Assembly (NCBI GenBank): GCA_965216875.1
Contig: OZ244207.1
Coordinates: 6,016,001-6,080,000 of the forward strand
Direction of reading: 5' to 3'
Length of the DNA: 64,000 bases
From: Rubripirellula sp.
GTDB lineage: Bacteria; Planctomycetota; Planctomycetia; Pirellulales; Pirellulaceae
Positions 17,558 to 40,020 of the stretch are shown piece after piece. Position 1 is the stretch's first letter; each line of letters starts with the position of its first letter. A model generated the notes under the pieces. That model had not been told where the DNA came from. It saw only the letters and a program-made list of their open reading frames with translations, and made no database searches. The position numbers were made by a program, and so were the translations under genes.

Positions 17558-18238
17558 TTATGCGGCGGGAGCTTCTTTGAAAGCTCGGTTGATTTCATCC
17601 AGCTGGTCGACTCGGTCGAACTTCCCAGCCACTTCCATGCTGTGAGTGACCATCAACAGCGACACGTTTTCTTCTTGGCACGACTGGCGAATGAGCTGCA
17701 AAACCTCCTCGGCACTCTTGGGGTCAACGTTTGCGGTCGGTTCATCCGCCAACAGGACCTTTGGCTTGCTTGCCAGTGCCCGAGCGATCGCGACGCGTTG
17801 CTGTTGGCCAACCGACAATTGACTGGGGCGATAATGAGCCCGATCGGCCAAGCCAACGCGGGCTAACAAATCGGCTGCTCGCCCGTGATCGGTACCACCA
17901 TGGCCAAACGTCATCCCCAGGCGAACGTTTTCGATCGCCGAAAAAGCGGGCAGCAGGTTAAAGGTTTGAAAGACATAACCGATTGCGGAAGCGCGAAACC
18001 GATCGCGACCTTGCTCGCTGAGCATTGTCAATTCGGTTCCACCCACTTTGATGCTGCCGGTGTCGGGAACGAGCAGTCCGGCAATCAAGTGCAACAGTGT
18101 GGTTTTGCCACCGCCACTTTGACCGATCAGCGCAACCTGTTCGCCATCGGCGATTTTGAATTCGGCAACATCCAGGACAGTCAATTCGCCCCCTCCCGGT
18201 TGAGGGAAGCGTTTGACCAAGTCTTTGATCTCTAACAT
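17558..18238 (-). CDS. ABC transporter ATP-binding protein (LolD/MacB-like)
   Basis: GQSGGGKTT, LSVGQQQRVAIARAL, LADEPT. Confidence 0.95.
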   Translation of the reverse strand: MLEIKDLVKRFPQPGGGELTVLDVAEFKIADGEQVALIGQSGGGKTTLLHLIAGLLVPDTGSIKVGGTELTMLSEQGRDRFRASAIGYVFQTFNLLPAFSAIENVRLGMTFGHGGTDHGRAADLLARVGLADRAHYRPSQLSVGQQQRVAIARALASKPKVLLADEPTANVDPKSAEEVLQLIRQSCQEENVSLLMVTHSMEVAGKFDRVDQLDEINRAFKEAPAA

Positions 18239-25809: not shown

Positions 25810-26355
25810 CTAGCGGACCGGATCGAAACCAAGTGCGCGGCGAAGCATCCCGAGCTGTCCTGCATGAATGTGTTCGTGCAGCGGGCAAAACAGAACAGCG
25901 CCCAAGTTGACTGGGTAGGCGGCGTAGGGCATGTCGACCGGCCGGAGTAGAACTTCGGGTGTGACTTCGCAGAGTTGCTCCAGGCCGAGGCGGTGCACTT
26001 CGGACATCCGCTCGAGCAGCTCGGTGGGAGAAGGTTGTTTCGACGGATCGGCAGAGGGTGTCGATCCGCGACTGTAGGCCTTTCGGAACTTGCTGGGGAT
26101 GAGCTGCACATCCTCGGGAGTGCGGCCGCGGAGTCGGAAGAGGAGCAACCCGTACTGACTGACCGTCAGATGGCCGACTTGCCATGCGACGTTGGTAGGC
26201 AAGCTGTCGGGGATTGTGAACCACTGGTCGTGCGGCACCGATTCGATCAGCTCGAGGGTGTAGTTGCGAGCAAATTCGATTTGCCCAATCGCACCCTGGA
26301 GCATTTGGAGGGCAGCATCTTCATCGGGCAGCGCCCGTCCGTTTTCGTCACTCAT
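25810..26355 (-). CDS. DinB family protein
   Basis: WQVGHL and HEHIHAGQL metal-binding histidines; start taken at MSDEN. Confidence 0.88.
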   Translation of the reverse strand: MSDENGRALPDEDAALQMLQGAIGQIEFARNYTLELIESVPHDQWFTIPDSLPTNVAWQVGHLTVSQYGLLLFRLRGRTPEDVQLIPSKFRKAYSRGSTPSADPSKQPSPTELLERMSEVHRLGLEQLCEVTPEVLLRPVDMPYAAYPVNLGAVLFCPLHEHIHAGQLGMLRRALGFDPVR

Positions 26356-26384
26356 GCTAGCAAGCATAACGCCCCGCCCCCACA

Positions 26385-26694
26385 AGGGGACAGCCACCCA
26401 ACAATTGCCTGTCCCCGTCCAGGGGACAGGCACCCGATAGACACCTCACGCAGACAATCTGACTGTTAGCAATGCCTGTCCCCGTGTTTGAGGAAGAGTG
26501 GAACTCTAGCGAGCAAGAGAAAACAGGGGACACGCACCCAAGTTATGCCTGTCCCCTTGCGCCCCAAGCAATCACAGGGACAGCCACTTTGGAAAGACAA
26601 TCTGACTCGCAGTAGTGCCTGTCCCCATGTTCTGCGCGAGTCATGCCTGTCCCCTATAGGACGGCGCGGTGCAAGCAACTTATGCCTGTCCCCT
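26385..26694. repeat. Array of short inverted repeats GGGGACAG(G/C)CAC / TGCCTGTCCCC
   Basis: Six TGCCTGTCCCC copies and four (G)GGGACA.C.AC-type copies within ~310 bp; AGACAATCTGACT occurs twice. Confidence 0.9.
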
Positions 26695-26720
26695 GGCGCG
26701 AGGGAGGGTGACGGGGTTTG

Positions 26721-27152
26721 CTAGCCAGCTTTCTTGACTCGCTTCTTTCGCGTCGGCTTGGCGACGAGGCGGATTTCAGGGAAGACCGGACGGCCACCGT
26801 GAAAGGTTCGGCGACCATCGATACTGTGGTCAAAAACGAACGCTCCCCCTGGCATCCCCGAGCGTGGCGACACCCGCAAAATTGCGGGATGACCGCACTC
26901 GGTGCACTGGATTCGCAACCCGTGCCCGTCAAGCAACTGATGAATCGACTCAACCAGCTTCCGATTCTGCTCGATGTCCCCCATCGTCGTCCCGGTCAAT
27001 GACGCCAACTGCGCCTGAATCGTCAGCCGAACCGTGCGTTGCAGCCGATTGAGCTGCAATTCCAACTCCTTCAGCGTCACCGAGGCCTCGCCCTGAAGCC
27101 CGTCTGCCGGCAAATCGGCGTCCTTTCGCTCGTCTTTTGGCATCTGACTCAT
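26721..27152 (-). CDS. Hypothetical protein with a coiled coil, CxxC/His motifs and a basic tail
   Basis: MSQMPKDE...CTECGHPAILR..FVFDH..RTFHGG..KPTRKKRVKKAG; the N-terminal extension of the tracked ORF looks non-coding. Confidence 0.75.
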   Translation of the reverse strand: MSQMPKDERKDADLPADGLQGEASVTLKELELQLNRLQRTVRLTIQAQLASLTGTTMGDIEQNRKLVESIHQLLDGHGLRIQCTECGHPAILRVSPRSGMPGGAFVFDHSIDGRRTFHGGRPVFPEIRLVAKPTRKKRVKKAG

Positions 27153-27276
27153 AGAAAACGCTGAAAAAGCCCCAGGATAGTTGCCCCACCTGGCCAGGGA
27201 CCAAAGGTGTCGACCGTTACGAATAAAACCTAGACGACACGATTTGCCAAAAAGTGCCCGACATCTGTAGACGAGT

Positions 27277-27293
27277 TTATACAAATTGTATAA
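27277..27293. promoter_or_regulatory. Perfect 8-1-8 palindrome, putative operator
   Basis: TTATACAA-A-TTGTATAA in a divergent promoter region of otherwise GC-rich DNA. Confidence 0.6.
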
Positions 27294-27715
27294 CCTGTCC
27301 AGGACCGCTGCGAGGGAAACGGCATTCCCCCTCCAGAATCGGGGACAAAACGAGTCGCAGCTGCCACGCCTCTGTTGTCTTGCAGACCTCCGGCTCAAAC
27401 CCAATCCAACGTCTTTGCGGATCCGTGCAGAGACCAACTTGCCGCAACCAAGGTCTAACGCCAACAGAATCCCGACTTCAGGGGCGGAATCCCGATCTCT
27501 AAGACCTACGAGACCCGAAAAAGCCGCGAGTTGTGATGCAAAAAAGCAACACCCCGACCCAGGAAAAAACGCACTAGACGCCACAACCAATACGGCCAAC
27601 CAACCCAGGCCATGAATCTTGCCTTCCCGTCAAGGTCAACATGGCGGCAGATTCGCGGATTCACTACTGTCAAACCTTCCAAACCCGTTCATTTCCATAG
27701 GCATTCGAGCCACAC

Positions 27716-29794
27716 ATGTCGGTCAATCAACAAACCGTCGAGGAAACCAAAGCCCAGATCCGTGGGCTGGTGAATGAGATTGCGTCGCTTTCGAAAAGTG
27801 GTGCAACCGCGGAAGAGTTCTATCCCGAGCTTCTTTCGCGAGTCATCACTGCGCTTGCAGCCGCCGGTGGTGCCATCTGGCTTTTGGACGAAGATCGGCA
27901 ACTCAAGCTGCAGTACCAAATCAATGCCGAACCGTCGATCCTTGCTGATGACACTGACGATGCCGTTCGCCACACGCGGTTGATTCAACGCGTTGCCAAC
28001 AGCGGCCAGTCACTCTTGGTTCCTCCCTATTCGGGAACCACCGACGGCGACGCCGAAGGCAACCCAACTCGTTACCTCCTGTGCCTCGGCGCTCTCAAAC
28101 ACGACGGCCAAAACGATGGCCTGATCGAAATCTTCCAACGCCCCGACACCGCACCCGATACGCAACGTGGTTACCTGCGTTTCTTGCAACAGATGTGCGA
28201 ACTGGCGGCCGAATGGTTGCGCAGCCAAAAACTTCGCACGCTTGGCGATCGGCAAACGCTTTGGCAACAAGCCGACTCGTTCGCTCGCGCATCGCACGAA
28301 TCACTCGACCTGAAGGAAACGGCCTACATCGTCGCGAACGAAGGCCGACGATTGATCGGCTGTGACCGAGTCAGTGTCGCGATCAAGAAAGGTCGCAAAT
28401 GCAAAGTCCAAGCGATCAGTGGCCAAGACACGATCGAAAACCGCTCCAACATCGTCGCGGCACTCAACAACCTCTCAACGCGCGTTTGTGCCGCCGGCGA
28501 ACCTCTTTGGCATGACGGTTCCACTGAAGACTTGCCGCCGCAAATCGAAGAAGCGCTCGAAGACTACGTCGACCAGTCGTACGGGCGACACATTGCGGTG
28601 CTGCCACTTCGCGAACCCGAGCGAACGCTCGGTAAAGACGACGAACTGGGCGCTGCGGGTGCAATCGACCGCGACAATGCTCACCGCGGTGAAGTGATCG
28701 GTGCGTTGATTGTCGAACAGATCGAAACCGACATCCCTGCGGAAATCTTTCACGCGCGCTGCGACCTCGTTTATGAACATGGCACACGAGCGATCGCAAA
28801 CTCGCGTGCTCATACGAACCTGTTCCTGATGCCGATTTGGCGAGCACTGGGTCGAGCGACCTGGGTGCTTCGCGCTCGCACGCTTCCCAAAACACTCGCT
28901 GTCCTCGGATTGGTTCTGGCCGTCGTCCTTGGATTGGTCTTCATCAAAAAGGACTTCACACTCGAAGCTGAAGGCACGTTGACGCCGGTGGTTCGACACC
29001 AAGTCTTTGCCGGAATCGATGGTGAAGTGATCGATGTGTTGGTCGACCATGACGACGAAGTCAAACAAGGCCAAGTCTTGGTACGCATGCGGAACCCAGA
29101 CGTTGAACTGCAACTTCAGGACATCGAAGGTCAAATCCAAACGGTGCTTGCTGAAAAGGCCCGCGTCGAAGGCCAGCTGAGTTACCGCCGCGAACTCAAG
29201 CCGACCGAAGCTCGCGCGCTTGAAGCCGAACAGTACGAACTCGAAGTCAAGCACAAGACGCTGATTGAAAAGAAGCGTCTGCAAATCGAGCGTGCGAAAG
29301 AACTCGAAATTGTCAGCCCGATCGACGGTGTGGTCGTTTCGTGGGACGTCGACAAAATGCTTCGCAGTCGTCCGGTCACCACCGGGCAGGTCGTGCTCGA
29401 AGTCGCCGACCTCACCAAGCCGCTGTTCTTGGACCTCGAACTTCCTGAAAAGCGGGAAGGCCACCTCGACGAATTCATCGAACAACAAGGCTTGGATCAA
29501 GTTTCGCAAGATGGCGAAGAACCATCACTTGATGTCACTTACATCCTCGCCACCAACACCGATACCAACATGGACGCAACGCTGATGCTTAGCAGCATCT
29601 CGATGCGAGCCGAGCCTCATGATGAGCATGGAGCGATCATTCGCATGGAGGCCATCCCTGATCAGGAAAGCCTGCGTGAATTGAATCCCCGCCCGGGAGC
29701 CAAAGTGACTGCAAAGATTCACTGCGGCCGCCGATCGAGCGGATTCGTTTTCCTTCACGAAGTGATCGAGTGGTGCTACGCGTTCTTCTTCTAA
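27716..29794 (+). CDS. GAF-domain + HlyD-family membrane fusion protein
   Basis: Two GAF-like segments (AAGGAIWLL..GLIEIF; LIGCDRVSVA..IGALIVE), TM helix, lipoyl-like AGIDGEVIDVLV / SPIDGVVV halves around a coiled coil. Confidence 0.88.
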   Translation: MSVNQQTVEETKAQIRGLVNEIASLSKSGATAEEFYPELLSRVITALAAAGGAIWLLDEDRQLKLQYQINAEPSILADDTDDAVRHTRLIQRVANSGQSLLVPPYSGTTDGDAEGNPTRYLLCLGALKHDGQNDGLIEIFQRPDTAPDTQRGYLRFLQQMCELAAEWLRSQKLRTLGDRQTLWQQADSFARASHESLDLKETAYIVANEGRRLIGCDRVSVAIKKGRKCKVQAISGQDTIENRSNIVAALNNLSTRVCAAGEPLWHDGSTEDLPPQIEEALEDYVDQSYGRHIAVLPLREPERTLGKDDELGAAGAIDRDNAHRGEVIGALIVEQIETDIPAEIFHARCDLVYEHGTRAIANSRAHTNLFLMPIWRALGRATWVLRARTLPKTLAVLGLVLAVVLGLVFIKKDFTLEAEGTLTPVVRHQVFAGIDGEVIDVLVDHDDEVKQGQVLVRMRNPDVELQLQDIEGQIQTVLAEKARVEGQLSYRRELKPTEARALEAEQYELEVKHKTLIEKKRLQIERAKELEIVSPIDGVVVSWDVDKMLRSRPVTTGQVVLEVADLTKPLFLDLELPEKREGHLDEFIEQQGLDQVSQDGEEPSLDVTYILATNTDTNMDATLMLSSISMRAEPHDEHGAIIRMEAIPDQESLRELNPRPGAKVTAKIHCGRRSSGFVFLHEVIEWCYAFFF

Positions 29795-29876
29795 CAGCCG
29801 CGAAGAAGCGAACAACGCCACAAACCTAGTCTTTTCTCAATCGAGCCAACGTTTCTTTATCCGGAGTACACCCCTT

Positions 29877-30773
29877 ATGCGTACGTCTTTGCTGTCGCTT
29901 TCAGCGAGCTTGGTGATGGTCGCAACCGCAATGGCTCAACAGCCAATTTCGCCCGGTGTGAACGAAATCCGCGCAGAAAACTGCATGGTGCAGTACATCA
30001 ACAAAGTTGAAATCCCTGCACGGGCCGAAGGCACGCTGACGGCCCTCCACTTCGAAGAAGGTGCAACGGTCAATGTCGGCGATGTGCTCGCGGTCATTGA
30101 CGACACGGCAGCTCGCCTGGCGCTCAAGCTCAAGAAGGCTGAAGAGAAGGAAGCGATCCTGAATGCGGCCAATGAGGTCTACATCAAAGACGCGATCAAC
30201 ACCGAAGAGCTGACCAGCGAAGAGGCCAAGGCCTACGAAGAACTTCACGTTCAACGAGCCGTCCCACGCTGGGAAATGGAAAAGAAACGACTCGAGGCCG
30301 TTCGTGCAAAGCTCAAGATCGATGTCGCGAAGATGAACAAGAGCATTGCCGAAGCGCAAATGCACGCGAAATTCGCTGAAATGCAAATCGCTGAGTACGA
30401 ACTGACTCGACGACAAGTCACCGCGCCCTCGACCGGCTTCATCGAAAACCGAATCGCTCAGCTTGGCCAATGGGTGCAACAAGGCAGTCCGATCGCGACG
30501 CTGATTCAAATGGACAAACTGCGTGTCGAAGGTGACATCGACGCGCTGCGTTACGCAGGCCAAGTGCAACCTGGCACACCTGTGAAAGTGATGATCTACA
30601 GTCAAGCAAGCGACGTGCTTTCCTTCGATGCCAAGCTCGGCTTTGTCAGCATGGAAATCGACCTGCGAAATCGTCATCGCGTCTGGGTCGAAGTCGAGAA
30701 CAAAAAGATCGGCAACGAATGGATGATCAAACCTGGCATGCGTGCCGAAATCGTCATCCAAGTCCAACCGTAG
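29877..30773 (+). CDS. HlyD-family periplasmic adaptor with a signal peptide
   Basis: Signal AMA-QQ, IPARAEGTL..EEG, APSTGFI..GQWVQQG, IKPGMRA. Confidence 0.9.
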   Translation: MRTSLLSLSASLVMVATAMAQQPISPGVNEIRAENCMVQYINKVEIPARAEGTLTALHFEEGATVNVGDVLAVIDDTAARLALKLKKAEEKEAILNAANEVYIKDAINTEELTSEEAKAYEELHVQRAVPRWEMEKKRLEAVRAKLKIDVAKMNKSIAEAQMHAKFAEMQIAEYELTRRQVTAPSTGFIENRIAQLGQWVQQGSPIATLIQMDKLRVEGDIDALRYAGQVQPGTPVKVMIYSQASDVLSFDAKLGFVSMEIDLRNRHRVWVEVENKKIGNEWMIKPGMRAEIVIQVQP

Positions 30774-30869
30774 CCGATCGTTTTTCAGTTCGAGGGGAAC
30801 CAGCCCTCGACACACGTATATCTAAGACCAAAACCCGCTTCCTTTTCCTGACTCCACTGCCCTTCTCCG

Positions 30870-33107
30870 ATGACCACTCTTGCCGAATCACTCGTTAGCA
30901 GCTCATCAAGGCCGCTGACGGTGCGCAAGCGTCCCGACCTGTCGGCCAACCGACAGCGTTATCAGGGGACCGGTTATTGGGTCGTCAAGGAACCGGTTGG
31001 TCTGCAGTACTATCGTTTTCACGACGAAGAGTACTACATCTTGAACATGCTGGACGGGCACGTCAGCCTGCAGCAGATCAAGGATGGCTTCGAACAGCGT
31101 TTCGCGCCTCAAAAAATCACCTTTGGCGACTTGCAACAGTTCATCGGGATGCTGCACCGCAGCGGTCTGGTGATCAGTAATTCACCAGGTCAAGGCAAAG
31201 CGCTTCGCGAACGCGGTCGCAAGAAACGCAACAAAGAAACGCTCGGCAAGTTTGCCAACGTCTTTGCACTGCGTTATCGCGGGTTTGACCCCGAAAAGAT
31301 TCTCAACGCGATCCTGCCGTGGTTCGGATGGTTGTTTACCGTCCCCGCTTTGATCGGCGCAGTCTTGCTGTTCCTGTCAGCATCGCTGTTGCTCGCGACC
31401 CAATACGAGACCGTTTACACGCGTCTGCCTACCTTCCAGCAGTTCTTTGCTGCTGACCGCTGGTTGATCCTTGCGGTCACGATGGCGCTGGTGAAGGTGA
31501 TCCACGAATTCGGTCACGGCCTGAGCTGTAAAAAGTTTGGCGGCGAGTGTCACGAAATCGGCTTCATGCTGCTGGTCTTTACACCCTGTTTGTATTGCAA
31601 CGTTTCCGACTCGTGGATGTTGCCCAACAAGTGGAAAAGGGTATGGATCGGTGCAGCCGGTATCTATGTCGAAATGATCTTGGCGTCGATCGCCGCTTTT
31701 GTTTGGTGGTTTACCGAACAGGGAACGACGATCAATGACCTTTGCTTGAACATGATGTTCTTGAACGCCGTCAGTACCGTTCTCGTCAACGGTAACCCGC
31801 TGCTGCGATTCGACGGTTACTACATCTTGATGGACCTGCTCGAGATCCCGAACCTTCGCCAAAAGAGCACGCAGGTGCTGACGCGATGGTTCCAAAGCAC
31901 TTGCTTGGGTTTGGAACTTCAAGAGGACCCGTTTCTTCCCACTCGTGGAAGATTCATGTTCGGGATGTTTACCGTCGCCAGCGTGATCTATCGCTGGGTC
32001 GTGGTTTTCTCGATCTGCTGGTTCGTGATCAAAGTCCTCGAACCTTATGGACTGCAAGCCGTCGGTCGCATGGTCGCCGTGATCGGTTTCGCAGGCCTCG
32101 TTGCTCAACCCTTCATCAAAACTTGGAAATTCTGTCGTACTCCTGGGAGGTTGTCCAAAGTGAAACGCACTCCCCTGTTGATCACGATCAGCGTCGTTGG
32201 CGCTGTCATCGCAGGCGTTTGCTACATCCCGTTGCCTCACCACGTTGATTGTGCCTTCGAGATTCGTCCCAATCAGGCAGGCGTGGTGTACGCCGGTTCG
32301 CCTGGTCGCATTGAGTGGACGGTTTCGCCAGGCGACAAAGTCGAGGTAAACGACAAGATCGCTGTTCTTCGTAACCCTGATCTTGAAATTCGCCTCGCTG
32401 AACTCAAGGGCGAAGAACTGGTTGCAAAAGTCAAGCTCGAGAACATGTCGTTCCGCAGCCGCGAAGATGTCGCCCTGAAAGCTCAAATCGAAACTCAAAC
32501 GGAATTGCTGGAATCGATTCAGTCGATGTTGGCAAAAACCGAAGATGAAATCGATCGGCTGACCGTTCGCACCAAGCGAGCCGGTTGGGTCATCCCGCCT
32601 CCGTCACGTGCTCCGCAAGACCAGAACGATGGACGCTTGCCAGGTTGGACCGGCACGCCGCTGCACGAAAAGAACCGCGGCGCGACGCTCACTTCCGACG
32701 ACGTGATTTGCGAAATCGGCGCATCCAATACTTGTGAAGCGGTTCTGATCATCGAACAAAGCGATGTTCAACTGGTCCGCGAAGGACAAGAAGTCGATAT
32801 GAAGCTTGATTCGCGCCGCCTCGAAACCTTTCACGGTTCGATCAGTGAAAAATCAAACGAACCAATCGAATCGATGTCGATGTCGATGGCAAGCCAAACC
32901 GGCGGTGCCATGCAAACTGAAATTGATCCGACAACCGGACAGGTAAAACCACGGAACGTCTCGTACCAAGCGCGCGTCCCACTAGAGCCGTTGGAGCTTC
33001 CGCTTCGCCCCGGTTACCGCGGTGCCGCAAAGATTCATGTTGACCCCATGTCACTCGGCCAACGCTTATGGCGACTAATCACCAAGACCTTTGCCTTTGA
33101 GTTTTAG
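30870..33107 (+). CDS. PqqD/RRE-like + M50 (site-2) metallopeptidase + HlyD fusion
   Basis: YWVVKEP..YYRF..MLDG..LHRSGL winged-helix module; HEFGH and NGNPLLRFDGYY zinc ligands; C-terminal adaptor ending LRPGYRGAAKI. Confidence 0.9.
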   Translation: MTTLAESLVSSSSRPLTVRKRPDLSANRQRYQGTGYWVVKEPVGLQYYRFHDEEYYILNMLDGHVSLQQIKDGFEQRFAPQKITFGDLQQFIGMLHRSGLVISNSPGQGKALRERGRKKRNKETLGKFANVFALRYRGFDPEKILNAILPWFGWLFTVPALIGAVLLFLSASLLLATQYETVYTRLPTFQQFFAADRWLILAVTMALVKVIHEFGHGLSCKKFGGECHEIGFMLLVFTPCLYCNVSDSWMLPNKWKRVWIGAAGIYVEMILASIAAFVWWFTEQGTTINDLCLNMMFLNAVSTVLVNGNPLLRFDGYYILMDLLEIPNLRQKSTQVLTRWFQSTCLGLELQEDPFLPTRGRFMFGMFTVASVIYRWVVVFSICWFVIKVLEPYGLQAVGRMVAVIGFAGLVAQPFIKTWKFCRTPGRLSKVKRTPLLITISVVGAVIAGVCYIPLPHHVDCAFEIRPNQAGVVYAGSPGRIEWTVSPGDKVEVNDKIAVLRNPDLEIRLAELKGEELVAKVKLENMSFRSREDVALKAQIETQTELLESIQSMLAKTEDEIDRLTVRTKRAGWVIPPPSRAPQDQNDGRLPGWTGTPLHEKNRGATLTSDDVICEIGASNTCEAVLIIEQSDVQLVREGQEVDMKLDSRRLETFHGSISEKSNEPIESMSMSMASQTGGAMQTEIDPTTGQVKPRNVSYQARVPLEPLELPLRPGYRGAAKIHVDPMSLGQRLWRLITKTFAFEF

Positions 33108-33331
33108 CCAACCAGCCTACGCATCTCACGTGGCTTAACTAACTACCCGTATTTTGACACCAAACCATTGCCCAGTCGCGTTGCAGCGATACCGCCGTTC
33201 GGTACGATAAGAAGCGCGTCTTGGCGATTCCAAAAGTGGAGTAACTGTGTGCGAGGTGGGCAGCACCTTCATGACGACTTCAACGCCCGCAACATCGTTT
33301 CCCCTGCTTGCTAACGACGGACACAGACAAC

Positions 33332-33348
33332 CTGTTAAGCGTTAACAG
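33332..33348. promoter_or_regulatory. Perfect 7-3-7 palindrome upstream of the DUF3467-like gene
   Basis: CTGTTAA-GCG-TTAACAG. Confidence 0.4.
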
Positions 33349-33396
33349 CAAAACGTTTCGAAAACACTTTCAACCCTTTCTTCGGAGATCCCACTC

Positions 33397-33819
33397 ATGG
33401 CAGACACCAACGACGACAAGCCTCAAGCAGCCGCCGCACCCGCAGCAGCCGAGCAAGCTCAAACCCAACAACCTGTTCAAGTACAAGTTGAAGATGATCA
33501 CGCCGTAGCGACCTACGCGAACTTCTGTCGCGTTACCGGTTCGCCCGAAGAGTTGATCGTCGACTTTGGTTTGAACCCACAACCCATCGGTGTTCCTAAG
33601 GATCCAATCCAAGTCAAGCAACGCATCATCGTTAACTTCTACACTGCAAAGCGTTTGCTCGCTGCATTGCAAATGTCGGTTGCACGTCATGAGTCGGTGT
33701 TCGGCGTTTTGGAAACCGACATCAACAAACGCGTTCGTCCAGGTCTTGGCCAACCACAAGGCGCTGCACCACAACGCGCTCCTGCTGCTCCACCAGCGGC
33801 AGAAGCCAGCGAAGGCTAA
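33397..33819 (+). CDS. DUF3467-like protein
   Basis: YANFCRVTGSPEELIVDFG..RIIVNFYTAKRLLAAL..HESVFG; GGAG upstream. Confidence 0.85.
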   Translation: MADTNDDKPQAAAAPAAAEQAQTQQPVQVQVEDDHAVATYANFCRVTGSPEELIVDFGLNPQPIGVPKDPIQVKQRIIVNFYTAKRLLAALQMSVARHESVFGVLETDINKRVRPGLGQPQGAAPQRAPAAPPAAEASEG

Positions 33820-33860
33820 TCGCATTCGATCCTCCGGATCGACAAGTTCATGCAACAAGA

Positions 33861-33891
33861 GGCCGTGTCCACATAGGACGCGGCCTTTTTT
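33861..33891 (+). terminator. Rho-independent terminator
   Basis: GGCCGTGTCC-ACATA-GGACGCGGCC-TTTTTT. Confidence 0.85.
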
Positions 33892-33903
33892 CGTCCTCTT
33901 GGC

Positions 33904-33983
33904 CTGAGCCGTACGCGCTAACGTCGGGCCCCTCCAAGAGACGTAGGACGAGTGCAAGGCCCGACGCTAGCGCGTTCGGCTCA
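33904..33983. repeat. Complete REP-like hairpin (TGAGCCG family)
   Basis: TGAGCCGTACGCGCTAACGTCGGGCC..GGCCCGACGCTAGCGCGTTCGGCTCA; the loop resembles that at 340-402. Confidence 0.9.
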
Positions 33984-34067
33984 CAGGCGAATAGCGAGTG
34001 CCTTGGTCCAGCATGGTTAGAATGAACGTGCCCTTTTCGCTTCACTTTTCCACCTGCGAGTAACACC

Positions 34068-35699
34068 GTGCGAACGACTCTCTTGTTGCTGCTTGCGTTT
34101 GCAATCTTGATTGGCGACCGATCGGCAGCGGCAGACCGCGATGACATCGTCGCGGTCCATTGGCCGAAAAGCGCCGAGTGGCTCTCCAAGAAAGTCATGC
34201 TCAATTGCGACACACTCAGTCAGTTTGTGGACGAGATTACTCAACAAACCGGCGCTACGATCATTGTCGACGAGTCCGGTCTTGATGAGATAGGCGTATC
34301 ACTCGACACCCGTTTTCAGATCCGCGTGCCGCGCAATATCACTGTCGACGAAGCCTTTGCGCGACTCCTCAGCCAACTCGATGTGACGTACCAGCTTCAA
34401 GCAACCCAGATACGCATCGCGTCGATCGATGATTTGGAATACGAAGGTCGGCAACAAACCTATCGGGTTCGTCCTCTGCTGAGCGTTCTTGAAACCGATC
34501 GCTTCGATCAGATGGATCGCGACAGTCTGATCATGTTGATCGAGACGACGATCGCTCCCGACACGTGGGAGTCTTTAGGTGGCCCTTCCACGACCATCGC
34601 GCATCAAGACATGATCACCGTCTCGACCAGCGACACTGTGCATGTGGACATCCTGCGACTCCTTCAGACTTTGGCACAAGCTCGAATGCTAACCGCTGCC
34701 GAAGCTCGCCAATCGCCAATGTTGCCAATCGATCAAGTCGACTTTGACCATAGCGTGACGCTGGAGGACTTAGAAGCCAAGATCCAACTGAACTTTCCAG
34801 AGGATCCCGACAAGGTGCCACTCCAACGACTGGTCGAACAACTCAACCAGCAAACGCAGCTGCACTTTGAGATCAACAGCCGTAGCCTTGACGAGAGTGG
34901 GCTGCCGAGTGACCAGCCGGTCAAAGTGATCAAACACGCGACATCGATCAGCGACTTGCTTACCGAAACGCTCCGCGACCTCGATGCTACTTATCGGTGT
35001 TATGGCAGCACCGTCTTCATCGAGACGCTTGACTCAAGCGAAACCAACCAGCAAACGGTTGTGTACCCGATCGCCGACTTGGTCGCCCGTTCCGTGTCCA
35101 AGGAAGCGCCTCATCTGTCGATCACTCCCTTCCTTGGCCGAGCCAATGGAACTTACTCTGGCGGCCATTCGTTTTCGGGAAGCGACCAATGGCGATTCAA
35201 AGTCTTACGGGGCGTCGAGACACCTCATAATACGGTGCATCCAGACGACTTGACCGAACTGATTCAAAGAACGGTCTCATCTGAATCGTGGGAAATGTTG
35301 GGTGGCCCAGCAACGATGGCTTACTTTGCACCAGCATCTTCACTTGTCGTCTCAGCAATTGACGAAAATCACGCCAAGATCCGAAAGCTTCTGCAAGACG
35401 TACGCAAAGGCCGGACGCTCGGCGGACAAGTCGGTGCGCCGATCGACATCGGTTCGGAATTCGCCACCGTCGCCTTCAACCTGAAAGCGAATACAAAAGA
35501 GCTTGCCGACCCAGTGGACCTGATTCGCAAGAACGTCGAGCCAAGGATGTGGGAACAACCTGAGGCATCAATTCAGCTCAACGGGAACTTGCTCATCGTG
35601 CGCAATCGCATCTCGATCATCGGCAAAACACTCGACATGCTCGAGCGACTGCAATTGCTCCAACCGCCAACCCAACAACTGCCCGGCGGTATGTTTTGA
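34068..35699 (+). CDS. Exported protein with repeated STN/secretin-N-like modules
   Basis: Signal peptide; two copies of the module (IVDESGLDEIG..IAPDTWESLGG; INSRSLDESG..VSSESWEMLGG); ends GGMF. Confidence 0.75.
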   Translation: MRTTLLLLLAFAILIGDRSAAADRDDIVAVHWPKSAEWLSKKVMLNCDTLSQFVDEITQQTGATIIVDESGLDEIGVSLDTRFQIRVPRNITVDEAFARLLSQLDVTYQLQATQIRIASIDDLEYEGRQQTYRVRPLLSVLETDRFDQMDRDSLIMLIETTIAPDTWESLGGPSTTIAHQDMITVSTSDTVHVDILRLLQTLAQARMLTAAEARQSPMLPIDQVDFDHSVTLEDLEAKIQLNFPEDPDKVPLQRLVEQLNQQTQLHFEINSRSLDESGLPSDQPVKVIKHATSISDLLTETLRDLDATYRCYGSTVFIETLDSSETNQQTVVYPIADLVARSVSKEAPHLSITPFLGRANGTYSGGHSFSGSDQWRFKVLRGVETPHNTVHPDDLTELIQRTVSSESWEMLGGPATMAYFAPASSLVVSAIDENHAKIRKLLQDVRKGRTLGGQVGAPIDIGSEFATVAFNLKANTKELADPVDLIRKNVEPRMWEQPEASIQLNGNLLIVRNRISIIGKTLDMLERLQLLQPPTQQLPGGMF

Positions 35700-37323: not shown

Positions 37324-40020
37324 ATGCCCATTCGACTGTTGTTGATTGCCCTCATGAGCCTGACGGTGGCGACCGCCGCCTCGGCCGTGGACGTGTTTGT
37401 GACCGCAACCACGGGCCAACCGTACGGGATCGCTTCGATCGAAATCCCGATCGATCGCCCCGTGCTCGGAAAGCAACTCCCGCCGATCGAAGTGACCGAG
37501 GAATCGGGCCGAGTCCTCTACCCCATCTCGGCTGATGTCCGCCAAAAGGTTTCGCGAGTCTCTTCGCGGCCGGTTCCGCAACCAGGTCGCGGACGATTGC
37601 TCGGACGAGTTGGCAACCTGATTCGGGAAATCACCGGCGGCGAAGAGGCGATGGAGCAGACGCTATCGCGACGCGTCTTCTTTTTGGTTCGTGGTAACGC
37701 GCCGGTCCGCGTGCAACTTGGCGATGCTTCCGGACCGATCGGCCAGTACGAAATCCAATTGACCAACGACGCTGCCGCGCGACAGAAGTTGATGAATGAG
37801 TGGTGGTCGTCCTATACCGCCGCGGCGCATCGACAAGCGGAAGCCGCAAAGTACCCGACCGTGGTCGAGTCCTATCTGGTTGCGATGCTTTCTGGACGAA
37901 CCGGCATGCCACTTCCGGATTGGTTCACAAGCACAGACGACGAAGACGACGCGTTGGTCGATACGCTCAAGTTGATCGGTGGTGCGCAAGGCGTCTCGGA
38001 CTCGATGTTTCGTCGCGCTGCTGCTGGGCACATCCATAACGAACAAGCGAACTTGCCGCTGCCTGCGGCGCCCAATTGGGCACCGATGTTTGAGGCAGAC
38101 AACCTGGACGACGTCGCCGTCGAACCGCTTGCCAAAGCCGTTCCGCCTGAGTGCTTTTACATTCGCTATGGCTCGTTTGCGAATTACATGTGGTTCCGCG
38201 ATCTCTCGCAAGACTACGGCGGAGACATATCGCGGATGGTCACGCTCAATGGCATCGCCGACGATTCCGCTGGTCGAATCGAGCGTCAACTCAACCTCAA
38301 AACGACCGAACTTTCGCGCATGCTTGGCGGCACGGTGATCGAAGATCAAGCGTTGATCGGACGCGATCTGTTCATGTCCGATGGCGCTTCGATGGGTGTG
38401 GCGATCCAAGCCAAGAACGTTTTCCTATTGCGAACTTCGCTAACGGCCGACCGCACCAAGCGCGCCGCGAGCGATGAATCGATCACGCTCAAAGACATCA
38501 CCATCGCGGGAAAGCCAGTCAGCTTCCTGAGCAGCCCCGACAATCGTGTTCGTTCCTACATGGCCGAACATGGCTCCGTCATTCTGGTCACCAACAGCAA
38601 AACGATCGTCGAGCGATTCTTTGCCGTCGCCGAAGGCGCGCCGTCGCTGGCCGACACCGCGTCGTTTCGTTTGTCGCGTCAACTCATGCCTCTGGAGCGA
38701 CAAGATTCGATCTTCGTTTACCTTTCACCAGCGATGCTGCGTGGCTTGGTGAGCCCCGAGTACTTGATTGAATTGCGTCGCCGATTGGTTGCCAAATCGG
38801 ACATCACCCTCGTCCATTTGGCGCGGCTCGCCGCTGCCGCGGAAGGGAATCGCGAGACGGGCATCGACCAATTAGCGGGACTCGGATTCCTGCCTGATGG
38901 CTTCGGTCGCCGGGCGGACGGTTCAGGTGTGATTTCCGTCGACGACACCGAAGTGATCGACACCATGCGCGGCGTGCGCGGAACGTTTCTGCCCATTGCG
39001 GATGCGAAAATCACTTCGGTGACTCAAGAAGAATCGAGTTGGTACCAGCGGGTTGCGGCTCACTACAGCAACGAGTTTCGCACGATCGACCCGATCATGA
39101 TTGGCGTGCAACGAGAAGAGATTGAAGGAACCGAGAACGTTGAACGCGTGACGATCCATGCCGAGATCGCACCCTGGGAACCTGAAAAGTACGGGTCGCT
39201 CGCCAAGCAGCTTGGACCGCCAACCAACGTGGCTTTGAAATTTGCTCCCGACGACATCATCGCCGTCCAAGCACACGTCGCCTCGGATCAACTCGGACCT
39301 CCGACACACTTGTTCGCGGCCGTGAAAGACAGCGTGCCACCCCGACCGGAAGACTTTGACGGCATCCTGAATATCTACCGGTCGCTTCAGGAGATACCGG
39401 GTTACCTGGGTGCCTGGCCCCAGCCGGGTGCACTCGACCGGCTTCCCTTGGGACTTGGCCGCGGTACACCGGTGGGCCCAAACATGAACCGCTTGATCGG
39501 CGGACTGTACCGCTACACGGCGGGAGGCTACAGCATCTTGTCGTTCCAACCGGACATCCTGCAGGCAAGTATCCCCCACATTTCGGCGATCAATGTCGAA
39601 GACAAAGCTCAGGTTCGATTGCATGTCGGCAACTTCTACGGCAGCCGCATCGAAGGTTGGGTCAATGGCCAACTCTACAAGCTGACCAGCGAAGGAAGCG
39701 GTGCTGGCGCCAATTACATGGGAATGCTGACTCGACAACTCAAAGTTGCCCCCGAGGACGTTCATGCGGCAGCGACCCGTATTCTGGGCACACCCATCCA
39801 ATGCACGCTCGGGGGGCAATACGAGTACTCTCCCTCAACGCACCAGTGGGTCAGTACGGCGTGGACGGCTTCGGCGTCAAGTCAGGGTGCACAGTTGACC
39901 GAAACGCCTCCGCCCGGGTACGTTTCGCCGGCGTTGAAGTGGTTCCGCGGAACCGACGCCACGTTGACCCAGTTCGATGACCGCCTTGTTGCCGATGCGG
40001 TGATCGACATTCAGCGGTAA
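37324..40020 (+). CDS. Large secreted hypothetical protein
   Basis: 898-aa ORF with a signal peptide (ASA-VD); no catalytic motif recognised. Confidence 0.85.
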   Translation: MPIRLLLIALMSLTVATAASAVDVFVTATTGQPYGIASIEIPIDRPVLGKQLPPIEVTEESGRVLYPISADVRQKVSRVSSRPVPQPGRGRLLGRVGNLIREITGGEEAMEQTLSRRVFFLVRGNAPVRVQLGDASGPIGQYEIQLTNDAAARQKLMNEWWSSYTAAAHRQAEAAKYPTVVESYLVAMLSGRTGMPLPDWFTSTDDEDDALVDTLKLIGGAQGVSDSMFRRAAAGHIHNEQANLPLPAAPNWAPMFEADNLDDVAVEPLAKAVPPECFYIRYGSFANYMWFRDLSQDYGGDISRMVTLNGIADDSAGRIERQLNLKTTELSRMLGGTVIEDQALIGRDLFMSDGASMGVAIQAKNVFLLRTSLTADRTKRAASDESITLKDITIAGKPVSFLSSPDNRVRSYMAEHGSVILVTNSKTIVERFFAVAEGAPSLADTASFRLSRQLMPLERQDSIFVYLSPAMLRGLVSPEYLIELRRRLVAKSDITLVHLARLAAAAEGNRETGIDQLAGLGFLPDGFGRRADGSGVISVDDTEVIDTMRGVRGTFLPIADAKITSVTQEESSWYQRVAAHYSNEFRTIDPIMIGVQREEIEGTENVERVTIHAEIAPWEPEKYGSLAKQLGPPTNVALKFAPDDIIAVQAHVASDQLGPPTHLFAAVKDSVPPRPEDFDGILNIYRSLQEIPGYLGAWPQPGALDRLPLGLGRGTPVGPNMNRLIGGLYRYTAGGYSILSFQPDILQASIPHISAINVEDKAQVRLHVGNFYGSRIEGWVNGQLYKLTSEGSGAGANYMGMLTRQLKVAPEDVHAAATRILGTPIQCTLGGQYEYSPSTHQWVSTAWTASASSQGAQLTETPPPGYVSPALKWFRGTDATLTQFDDRLVADAVIDIQR

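Follow-up and report, generated by a model that had tools for sequence, protein, structure and literature searches.

Gene content of the operon

The analysed window is a stretch of 64 kb from a contig of Rubripirellula sp., and unprefixed coordinates refer to this window. Open reading frame (ORF) calling revealed an operon of four co-oriented ORFs, which encode three proteins with a periplasmic adaptor domain of the HlyD type (membrane fusion protein, MFP) and a DUF3467 protein. One adaptor is fused to an RRE domain and an M50 protease. The operon is described here as the candidate core of an exporter for large surface proteins. Its features are as follows:

27716..29794, + strand: fusion of two GAF domains, a transmembrane (TM) helix and an adaptor (MFP), 692 AA, the hydrophobic helix spanning residues 392-410
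29877..30773, + strand: stand-alone periplasmic adaptor (MFP) of 298 AA, whose N-terminus resembles a signal peptide (by eye)
30870..33107, + strand: fusion of RRE, M50 intramembrane zinc protease and adaptor, 745 AA
30915..31178, + strand: RRE domain, predicted leader-binding module, residues 16-103; structural match to 5v1u and 6jx3
31503..31517, + strand: HEFGH zinc-binding motif, residues 212-216
31794..31817, + strand: NPLLRFDG motif, residues 309-316
33397..33819, + strand: DUF3467 protein, 140 AA
33857..33891, + strand: intrinsic terminator, 14-pair hairpin and U-run

In profile searches, the 692 AA protein matched GAF_3/GAF at residues 31-166 and 198-306 and biotin-lipoyl/HlyD_3 behind the helix. 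The 298 AA adaptor scored 104 bits with RND_mfp, above the cut-off of 94.9; its signal peptide (MRTSLL...AMA, cleaved before QQ) was assigned by eye. The 140 AA protein matched DUF3467 as a full member of the family (E 1.4e-24). The terminator hairpin (33857-33889) has an energy of -25 kcal/mol (z -6.4 relative to 200 shuffled sequences) and is followed by a U-run; a consensus terminator scanner did not pick it up. A first-pass annotation, made from the letters of the window, had described the three adjacent adaptor genes (GAF-GAF-TM type, signal-peptide type, RRE-M50 fusion) and the DUF3467 gene with a strong terminator behind it, which ORF calling, profile matches and folding energy bear out. 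It had also reported the locus to be devoid of an ATP-binding cassette (ABC) ATPase, a resistance-nodulation-division (RND) pump, TolC, and precursors or tailoring enzymes of peptides that are made by the ribosome and modified post-translationally (RiPPs). Annotation of the operon ORFs agreed and detected no SecA either. The sole ABC-like ORF of the window (17558-18238) lies 9.5 kb upstream on the opposite strand.

Structure of the RRE-M50-adaptor protein

Profile searches of the 745 AA protein gave a weak PqqD match (Pfam E 0.0025) besides Peptidase_M50 and HlyD. An AlphaFold model was obtained with a predicted local distance difference test (pLDDT) of 90.1. Model residues 16-103 were matched to two leader-bound lasso-peptide RREs, 5v1u (Z 10.6, root mean square deviation (rmsd) 2.9, 82 residues, model 18-103) and 6jx3 (Z 10.6), both alignments having an rmsd of 2.8-2.9 over 82-84 residues, and the three strands and three helices of the RRE/PqqD fold are present. 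Although the Pfam match is weak, the PqqD assignment is firm owing to this structure comparison. Residues 196-392 matched RseP (9j83, Z 9.4) and the C-terminal part matched MacA-type adaptors (best Z 15.8, 4dk1). A PDB sequence search with the full protein matched the adaptor part alone.

The site-2 protease motifs, HEFGH at residue 212 and N307-x-N-P-LLRF-DG with its NPLLRFDG part at 309, are intact. The PqqD/RRE-like domain and the intact protease reported at first pass are both confirmed. H212, E213 and H216 as well as N309, P310 and D315 are invariant across 116 aligned rows. Among distant representatives, HExxH was found in 148/150 and the motif NP-x-x-[RKQ]-x-DG in 145/150, which argues that the M50 domain is probably kept catalytically active.

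Conservation of the operon

Close relatives were represented by 80 loci, many of them on short contigs, and ten window neighbours were tested; relatives of 80-95% identity belong to the Pirellulaceae. The free adaptor was linked to the protease in 79 loci, the GAF protein in 76 and DUF3467 in 74. A SecA-like match occurred in one locus and an outer membrane factor in none, many contigs being short. No precursor or tailoring gene was conserved among the ten neighbours in these loci. The protease orthologue was present in 61/61 sampled genomes of the family.

DUF3467 was detected in 60/61 family genomes and adjoins the best protease match in 47/60; the linkage of this gene to the three adaptor genes, whose absence was to speak against the first-pass view, is thus a regular one in the family (4/10 in the plasmid loci described below). 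The protein has a conserved core of 92 AA, for which a low-confidence model (pLDDT 64.5) shows three strands and a helix. A search of the Atlas returned DUF3467 clusters exclusively. Nothing in the analysis points to DUF3467 as a substrate, a role that had been considered at first. The same genome contains a tandem double-DUF3467 protein (G000:C1:2460162-2460680, - strand); similar doubles occur in other Planctomycetia, sometimes beside a single-domain gene.

For a wider survey, 121 Planctomycetota genomes were used, in which the protease fusion was present in 39 and absent from 82. Some of the protease-positive genomes have other architectures, e.g., G097, whose 1265 AA protein (L105:8025-11822) has about 550 additional residues N-terminal to M50-HlyD. 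DUF3467 was found in 25/39 protease-positive and in 6/82 protease-negative genomes; due to kinship of the genomes, this and the following phylum and family tallies, and Fisher values derived from them, overstate independence.

A truncated SecA as candidate motor

The genome contains three SecA_DEAD genes, with one truncated copy inside a paralogous operon. A further, orphan truncated SecA (G000:C1:7640010-7642295), 1.6 Mb from the operon and unlinked to it, retains Walker A and DEAD motifs in intact form, and the wing/scaffold domain (SecA_SW) gave no match. Models for accessory SecA2 gave matches under the cut-off only. Orthologues of the truncated SecA were found in 61/61 family genomes, the same set as for the protease, whereby one of the best matches (G158, 44%) may be a paralogue.

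The best SecA and protease matches were adjacent in 23/60 genomes, distant on the same contig in 11 and on separate contigs in 26. Adjacency was observed in 0/14 genomes with at least 80% identity and in 23/46 of the remaining genomes. In G116, the gene order is SecA2-GAF-MFP-M50-DUF3467, and ORFs of 657-4713 AA with the N-terminal tag described below flank both sides (L101/L102). The simplest reading is that secA2 has moved away from the operon in this clade, the direction being inferred. The identities of SecA and protease to those of the present genome correlate with a Spearman coefficient of 0.78, a value that common descent could yield by itself. In the phylum survey, a second SecA_DEAD match was found in 25/39 protease-positive and 6/82 negative genomes.

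These results bear on the main proposal of the first-pass annotation, an export conduit free of ABC transporters and without a motor of its own, with substrate recognition and cleavage assigned to the RRE-M50 unit. The putative conduit and the predicted recognition and probable cleavage of a leader by RRE-M50 can be retained; the term "motor-less" is abandoned in view of a truncated SecA with intact motifs throughout the family, next to the protease in 23/60 genomes.

Tagged proteins as putative cargo

A pattern search yielded 74 ORFs with an LE-x-R-x-LL tag within the first 120 residues, 70 of which have at least 400 AA; these numbers are estimates with a few chance hits among them, since the greedy ORF caller preferred shadow frames over two true operon genes. 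The tag was found in 7/8 ORFs of at least 4000 AA, 11/24 of 2000-4000 AA and 37/257 of 1000-2000 AA; in a control window for the same three size classes, 0, 0 and 0 matches were obtained. An Arg-rich stretch precedes the tag. With a median of +7, the tag region is basic, and the hydrophobic core typical of a signal peptide is missing from it (4/70 above 2.0). On about 70 ORFs the tag fits the consensus RRLxxExLExRxLLA given in the accessible text of PMC8567305. PF07595 (Planc_extracel) confirmed 24 and NF012209 (LEPR-XLL) three of these sites.

When three tag models were combined, a match was found in 22/39 protease-positive and 2/82 protease-negative Planctomycetota genomes. The five genomes contributing rows to the custom model were already positive with public models. 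The tally includes a marginal match in G016 (E 0.0049), counted as it stands. A match in G102, located mid-frame on a probable shadow strand, was judged to be a chance hit and is also counted.

The genome holds six full-length protease genes, i.e., five paralogues besides the operon copy. Of the five paralogous loci, two have a tagged giant at a distance of at most 5.5 kb, and an OEP gene is present at four. Judged from sequence, the tagged, mostly very large surface proteins are likely the cargo of the system, which adds to the first-pass annotation a substrate it had not named. The operon itself is likely the family-wide core copy and, in this lineage, the housekeeping copy for dozens of scattered cargo genes.

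Prediction of tag recognition

Protease residues 12-430 were folded together with a 44-residue tag stretch. The complex scored 0.52 and the best control 0.04, with a contact agreement of at least 56% and a partner pLDDT of at least 53 in the runs; the support is weak and no interface is given. The scoring mark was reached by 116/157 solved pairs and 2/215 mismatched pairs, and at 0.60 or lower by 18/157 solved pairs and both mismatches. Binding of the tag by the RRE is weakly predicted on this basis; the score may reflect likeness only, because RRE-leader complexes have already been solved.

Plasmid operons and candidate outer-membrane partners

Ten loci on proteobacterial plasmids were picked from 71 records for spread, not randomly. 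In nine of them, a co-oriented tagged gene of 3,300-12,900 AA is located inside the operon (three tags were called by annotation, two by NF012209 and four by direct reading); the tenth encodes an untagged 492 AA repeat protein. Giants with DUF4347 bear the same LE-x-R-x-LL tag. TolC is encoded in 7/10 operons, a SecA-like protein and DUF3467 in 4/10 each, and SapC in one. By annotation, RiPP precursor or tailoring genes were found in 0/10, as were ABC or RND pumps, although an ABC partner could be unlinked; ABC or RND transporters in homologous loci would have spoken against the first-pass proposal. Its suggestion to look for TolC, SecA-like proteins and giants nearby thus succeeded for the plasmid operons, but the Rubripirellula operon has none of the three in its vicinity. 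At L085:22215-23036, SapC occupies an operon in which DUF3467 is missing; the two are perhaps interchangeable accessory proteins.

In the Rubripirellula genome, OEP matches numbered 19 and fell into about 12 genes. Candidate TolC-type partners are the large orphan OEP proteins at G000:C1:4618952-4621567 and 490612-492102, and also 134330. The first two belong to a class-specific family of large OEP proteins, members of which often adjoin module genes (G074, G086, G096 and G000).

Relation to known systems

The gene set had been regarded as known from genome annotations alone. In fact, Kamneva, Poudel and Ward (2015, PMC4452313) described M50-HlyD, HlyD and GAF-HlyD proteins beside a truncated second SecA, with or without OEP and without an ABC transporter, in planctomycetes and proteobacteria. 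In the accessible text, the M50 protein is proposed as the pore and SecA_DEAD as the ATPase, partners may be encoded elsewhere in the genome, the biological role is called unknown, and neither RRE, DUF3467 nor a cargo is named. The operon is a member of this SecA_DEAD/M50-HlyD/GAF-HlyD module, known in silico since 2015: the M50-HlyD protein with TM helices, the GAF-HlyD protein and the stand-alone adaptor are the same three adaptor-bearing proteins, an ABC transporter is absent from the locus, and the secondary SecA_DEAD lacks the wing/scaffold domain SecA_SW. SecA and TolC differ in being unlinked in the Rubripirellula genome.

With type I secretion (HlyB-HlyD-TolC) and peptidase-containing ABC transporters (PCAT), the operon would share the adaptor/TolC conduit and a very large cargo and, in the case of PCAT, cleavage of an N-terminal leader at the membrane. 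In contrast, it is ABC-free (no cognate ABC transporter in the operon or in the ten distant ones), has three different adaptors, contains M50 and RRE in place of the C39 peptidase, and is probably paired with a SecA-type ATPase. A comparable arrangement is the Gram-positive SecA2/SecY2 system, in which a SecA paralogue is reserved for large adhesins whose N-terminus is atypical, but the present locus carries adaptors and a protease instead of SecY2 or Asp genes.

The daptide protease MpaP (bioRxiv 10.1101/2023.03.08.531785; NF041824) is said, in the part of the preprint accessible, to remove a leader with the motif ELExMEAP. In both proteins the RRE is fused N-terminally to an intramembrane site-2 protease, and MpaP substrates have an acidic-hydrophobic leader motif; they are short RiPP precursors, however, MpaP has no adaptor domain, and the 745 AA protein falls below the NF041824 cut-off.

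As far as the text of PMC8567305 was accessible, Planc_extracel-tagged proteins are treated there as surface proteins and the motif, traced to 2004, as a putative export signal. The tag is the same as that of PF07595 and NF012209, for which the papers, in their accessible parts, assign no export machine. According to the same source, Tuwongella yielded a second SecA of 75 kDa and a protein with DUF3467, both of which may or may not be orthologues; an 83-kDa PF02163 protein in its table, perhaps RseP, was disregarded as evidence. A literature search, which covered few subscription papers, found no paper joining the LE-x-R-x-LL tag to the module, and the accessible parts of PMC10952558, PMC10868602, PMC3482391, PMC13723633 and PMC8277102 contain nothing on this link.

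Proposed mechanism

It appears fairly probable that the operon, together with the truncated SecA, constitutes the core of a tag-directed, SecA2-powered exporter for large surface proteins, in which export and cleavage would proceed as follows. The operon would supply the core parts, in the inner membrane and the periplasm, of an exporter that works in one step and whose cargo starts with an Arg-rich stretch and LE-x-R-x-LL. The cytoplasmic RRE, a fold established by structure match, would bind the tag, in line with the weak complex prediction. M50, whose motifs are intact, would cleave the chain at the tag or immediately after it, close to the LL/A junction, by analogy to the daptide RRE-protease. 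The truncated SecA at G000:C1:7640010-7642295, co-inherited with the protease, would drive the unfolded chain using ATP. The three adaptors would assemble into a mixed channel leading to a protein of the TolC type, whose gene lies elsewhere. Finally, DUF3467 might serve in the cytoplasm as a chaperone or an adaptor, and a scaffolding or regulatory part might fall to the GAF domains.

Several observations weigh against this mechanism. No tag match was obtained in 17/39 protease-positive genomes, of which a part is explicable by the insensitivity of short models and by positives of other architecture. The tagged ORF nearest to the operon is 50 kb away; together with the five protease paralogues, this distance leaves the pairing of copies with cargo to conjecture. 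One plasmid cargo (L162) has no tag, and G003, a protease-negative genome, likewise has members of the candidate OEP family. As to the motor, 14/39 protease-positive genomes lack a second SecA at the threshold applied. The closed genome G026 (L103, L104) has scattered genes for protease, adaptor, GAF-adaptor and DUF3467, a canonical SecA only and no tag match. In G107, the second SecA (L106:13157-15109) is in the usual operon position but lacks Walker A/DEAD. Three module-bearing plasmids carry no SecA on that replicon, the chromosomes not having been searched. Considering G026, G107 and the SecA-less plasmids, a SecA2-independent subtype may exist at other loci, which keeps the idea of export without a motor partly alive for those loci, not for the present operon. 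The system of G026 could be one that truly lacks SecA2 or one in decay.

Alternative explanations

Among the alternatives, an exit of the cargo with the C-terminus first, as in type I secretion, is unlikely, though ranked first. The N-terminal tag would then be a tether held by the RRE, and the M50 cut, perhaps GAF-controlled, would release the protein in a manner resembling LapA/LapG. Five SecA-less plasmid loci of the type TolC-adaptor-adaptor-protease (L087, L089, L161, L162 and L164) encode cargos sharing, by eye, a P-x-[LF]-x-x-Q-like motif at the C-terminus, one of them being the cargo without the N-terminal tag, and a 2026 preprint, in its accessible part, hypothesises C-first export of Chlorobium LEPRxLL giants via SapC/TolC/HlyD. 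The motif is missing from the five cargos of the GAF/SecA type, and the SecA-less plasmid loci may form another subtype, whose cargo carries its signal at the C-terminus. In the present genome, however, the C-termini of the tagged proteins are heterogeneous (35/70 inspected), while the N-terminal tag is shared. Furthermore, SecA motors push the N-terminus first, as is textbook knowledge.

Quite improbable is translocation without a dedicated ATPase, i.e., by the RRE-M50 unit itself (driven by the proton gradient or by folding) or with a borrowed canonical SecA. It is consistent with the operon lacking a motor, with the single SecA-like match in the 80 close loci (many contigs short), with G026, G097 and the three plasmids, in which a second SecA was not seen, and with its degenerate form in G107. 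The intact truncated SecA in 61/61 family genomes and its adjacency to the protease in half (23/46) of those outside the closest clade argue against it.

We also give little credence to a signalling device in which GAF would sense a cue, M50 would cut a regulator in the membrane and DUF3467 would regulate by binding nucleic acid in the manner of PC4/PUR. M50 proteases often act in regulated proteolysis, as is well known from textbooks, and fold searches with the DUF3467 model returned COMM, PUR-alpha, PC4 and MRP as top matches. These matches are insignificant (Z at most 3.6, Foldseek E at least 0.18, pLDDT 64.5 model), and three adaptors as well as TolC (7/10) and giants (9/10) in plasmid operons would be left unexplained. 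Maturation and export of a RiPP or small peptide is highly improbable: the best NCBIfam match of the 745 AA protein is daptide_HExxH (NF041824), but at 188.7 bits it is well under the cut-off of 300, daptide enzymes have no adaptor, and precursor or tailoring genes are neither conserved near the 80 loci nor annotated in the ten plasmid operons.

Returning to the tag-directed, SecA2-powered exporter, we lean somewhat towards the wider view that the module represents an ABC-free secretion pathway without a name, directed by an N-terminal tag and powered by a SecA paralogue, whose adaptor-TolC channel has a recognition domain of the RiPP type and a membrane protease at its entrance. The present operon would then be the one housekeeping copy of the pathway in the Pirellulaceae and the long-missing route for Planc_extracel surface proteins, including chains of more than 8,000 residues. 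The planctomycete tag had no machine and the 2015 module no cargo; if true, this reading would unite both, and most of the largest proteins in these bacteria would exit by one route joining SecA, type I and RiPP parts. A short tag exporting giant proteins could also serve biotechnology.

Flanking features and transcription

The promoter scan gave 2 sites with 2.3 expected, none informative, and an Rfam search of 26000-35000 gave zero matches. Contigs of one sequencing run, guessed to be RNA, span parts of the operon, level and strand not being readable from contigs; two further runs had no contig over the operon. One gene diverges from the operon:

26721..27152, - strand: divergent gene with CxxC, 143 AA; co-occurs with the operon in close relatives

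It is a single-copy gene, gave no family in Pfam and NCBIfam searches and accompanies the operon in 68/80 close loci. Directly 3' of the terminator, a REP-like dispersed repeat (33893-33990) was found, with 406 blastn pieces genome-wide. It is followed by a secreted-type ORF with an STN domain (34068-35699, 543 AA), whose position is not conserved, and by a secreted-type ORF of 898 AA and no known function (37324-40020), which co-travels with argH. One contig with an entire planctomycete operon of 89% identity (L014) is in a bin labelled Nitrosopumilus and is probably mis-binned.

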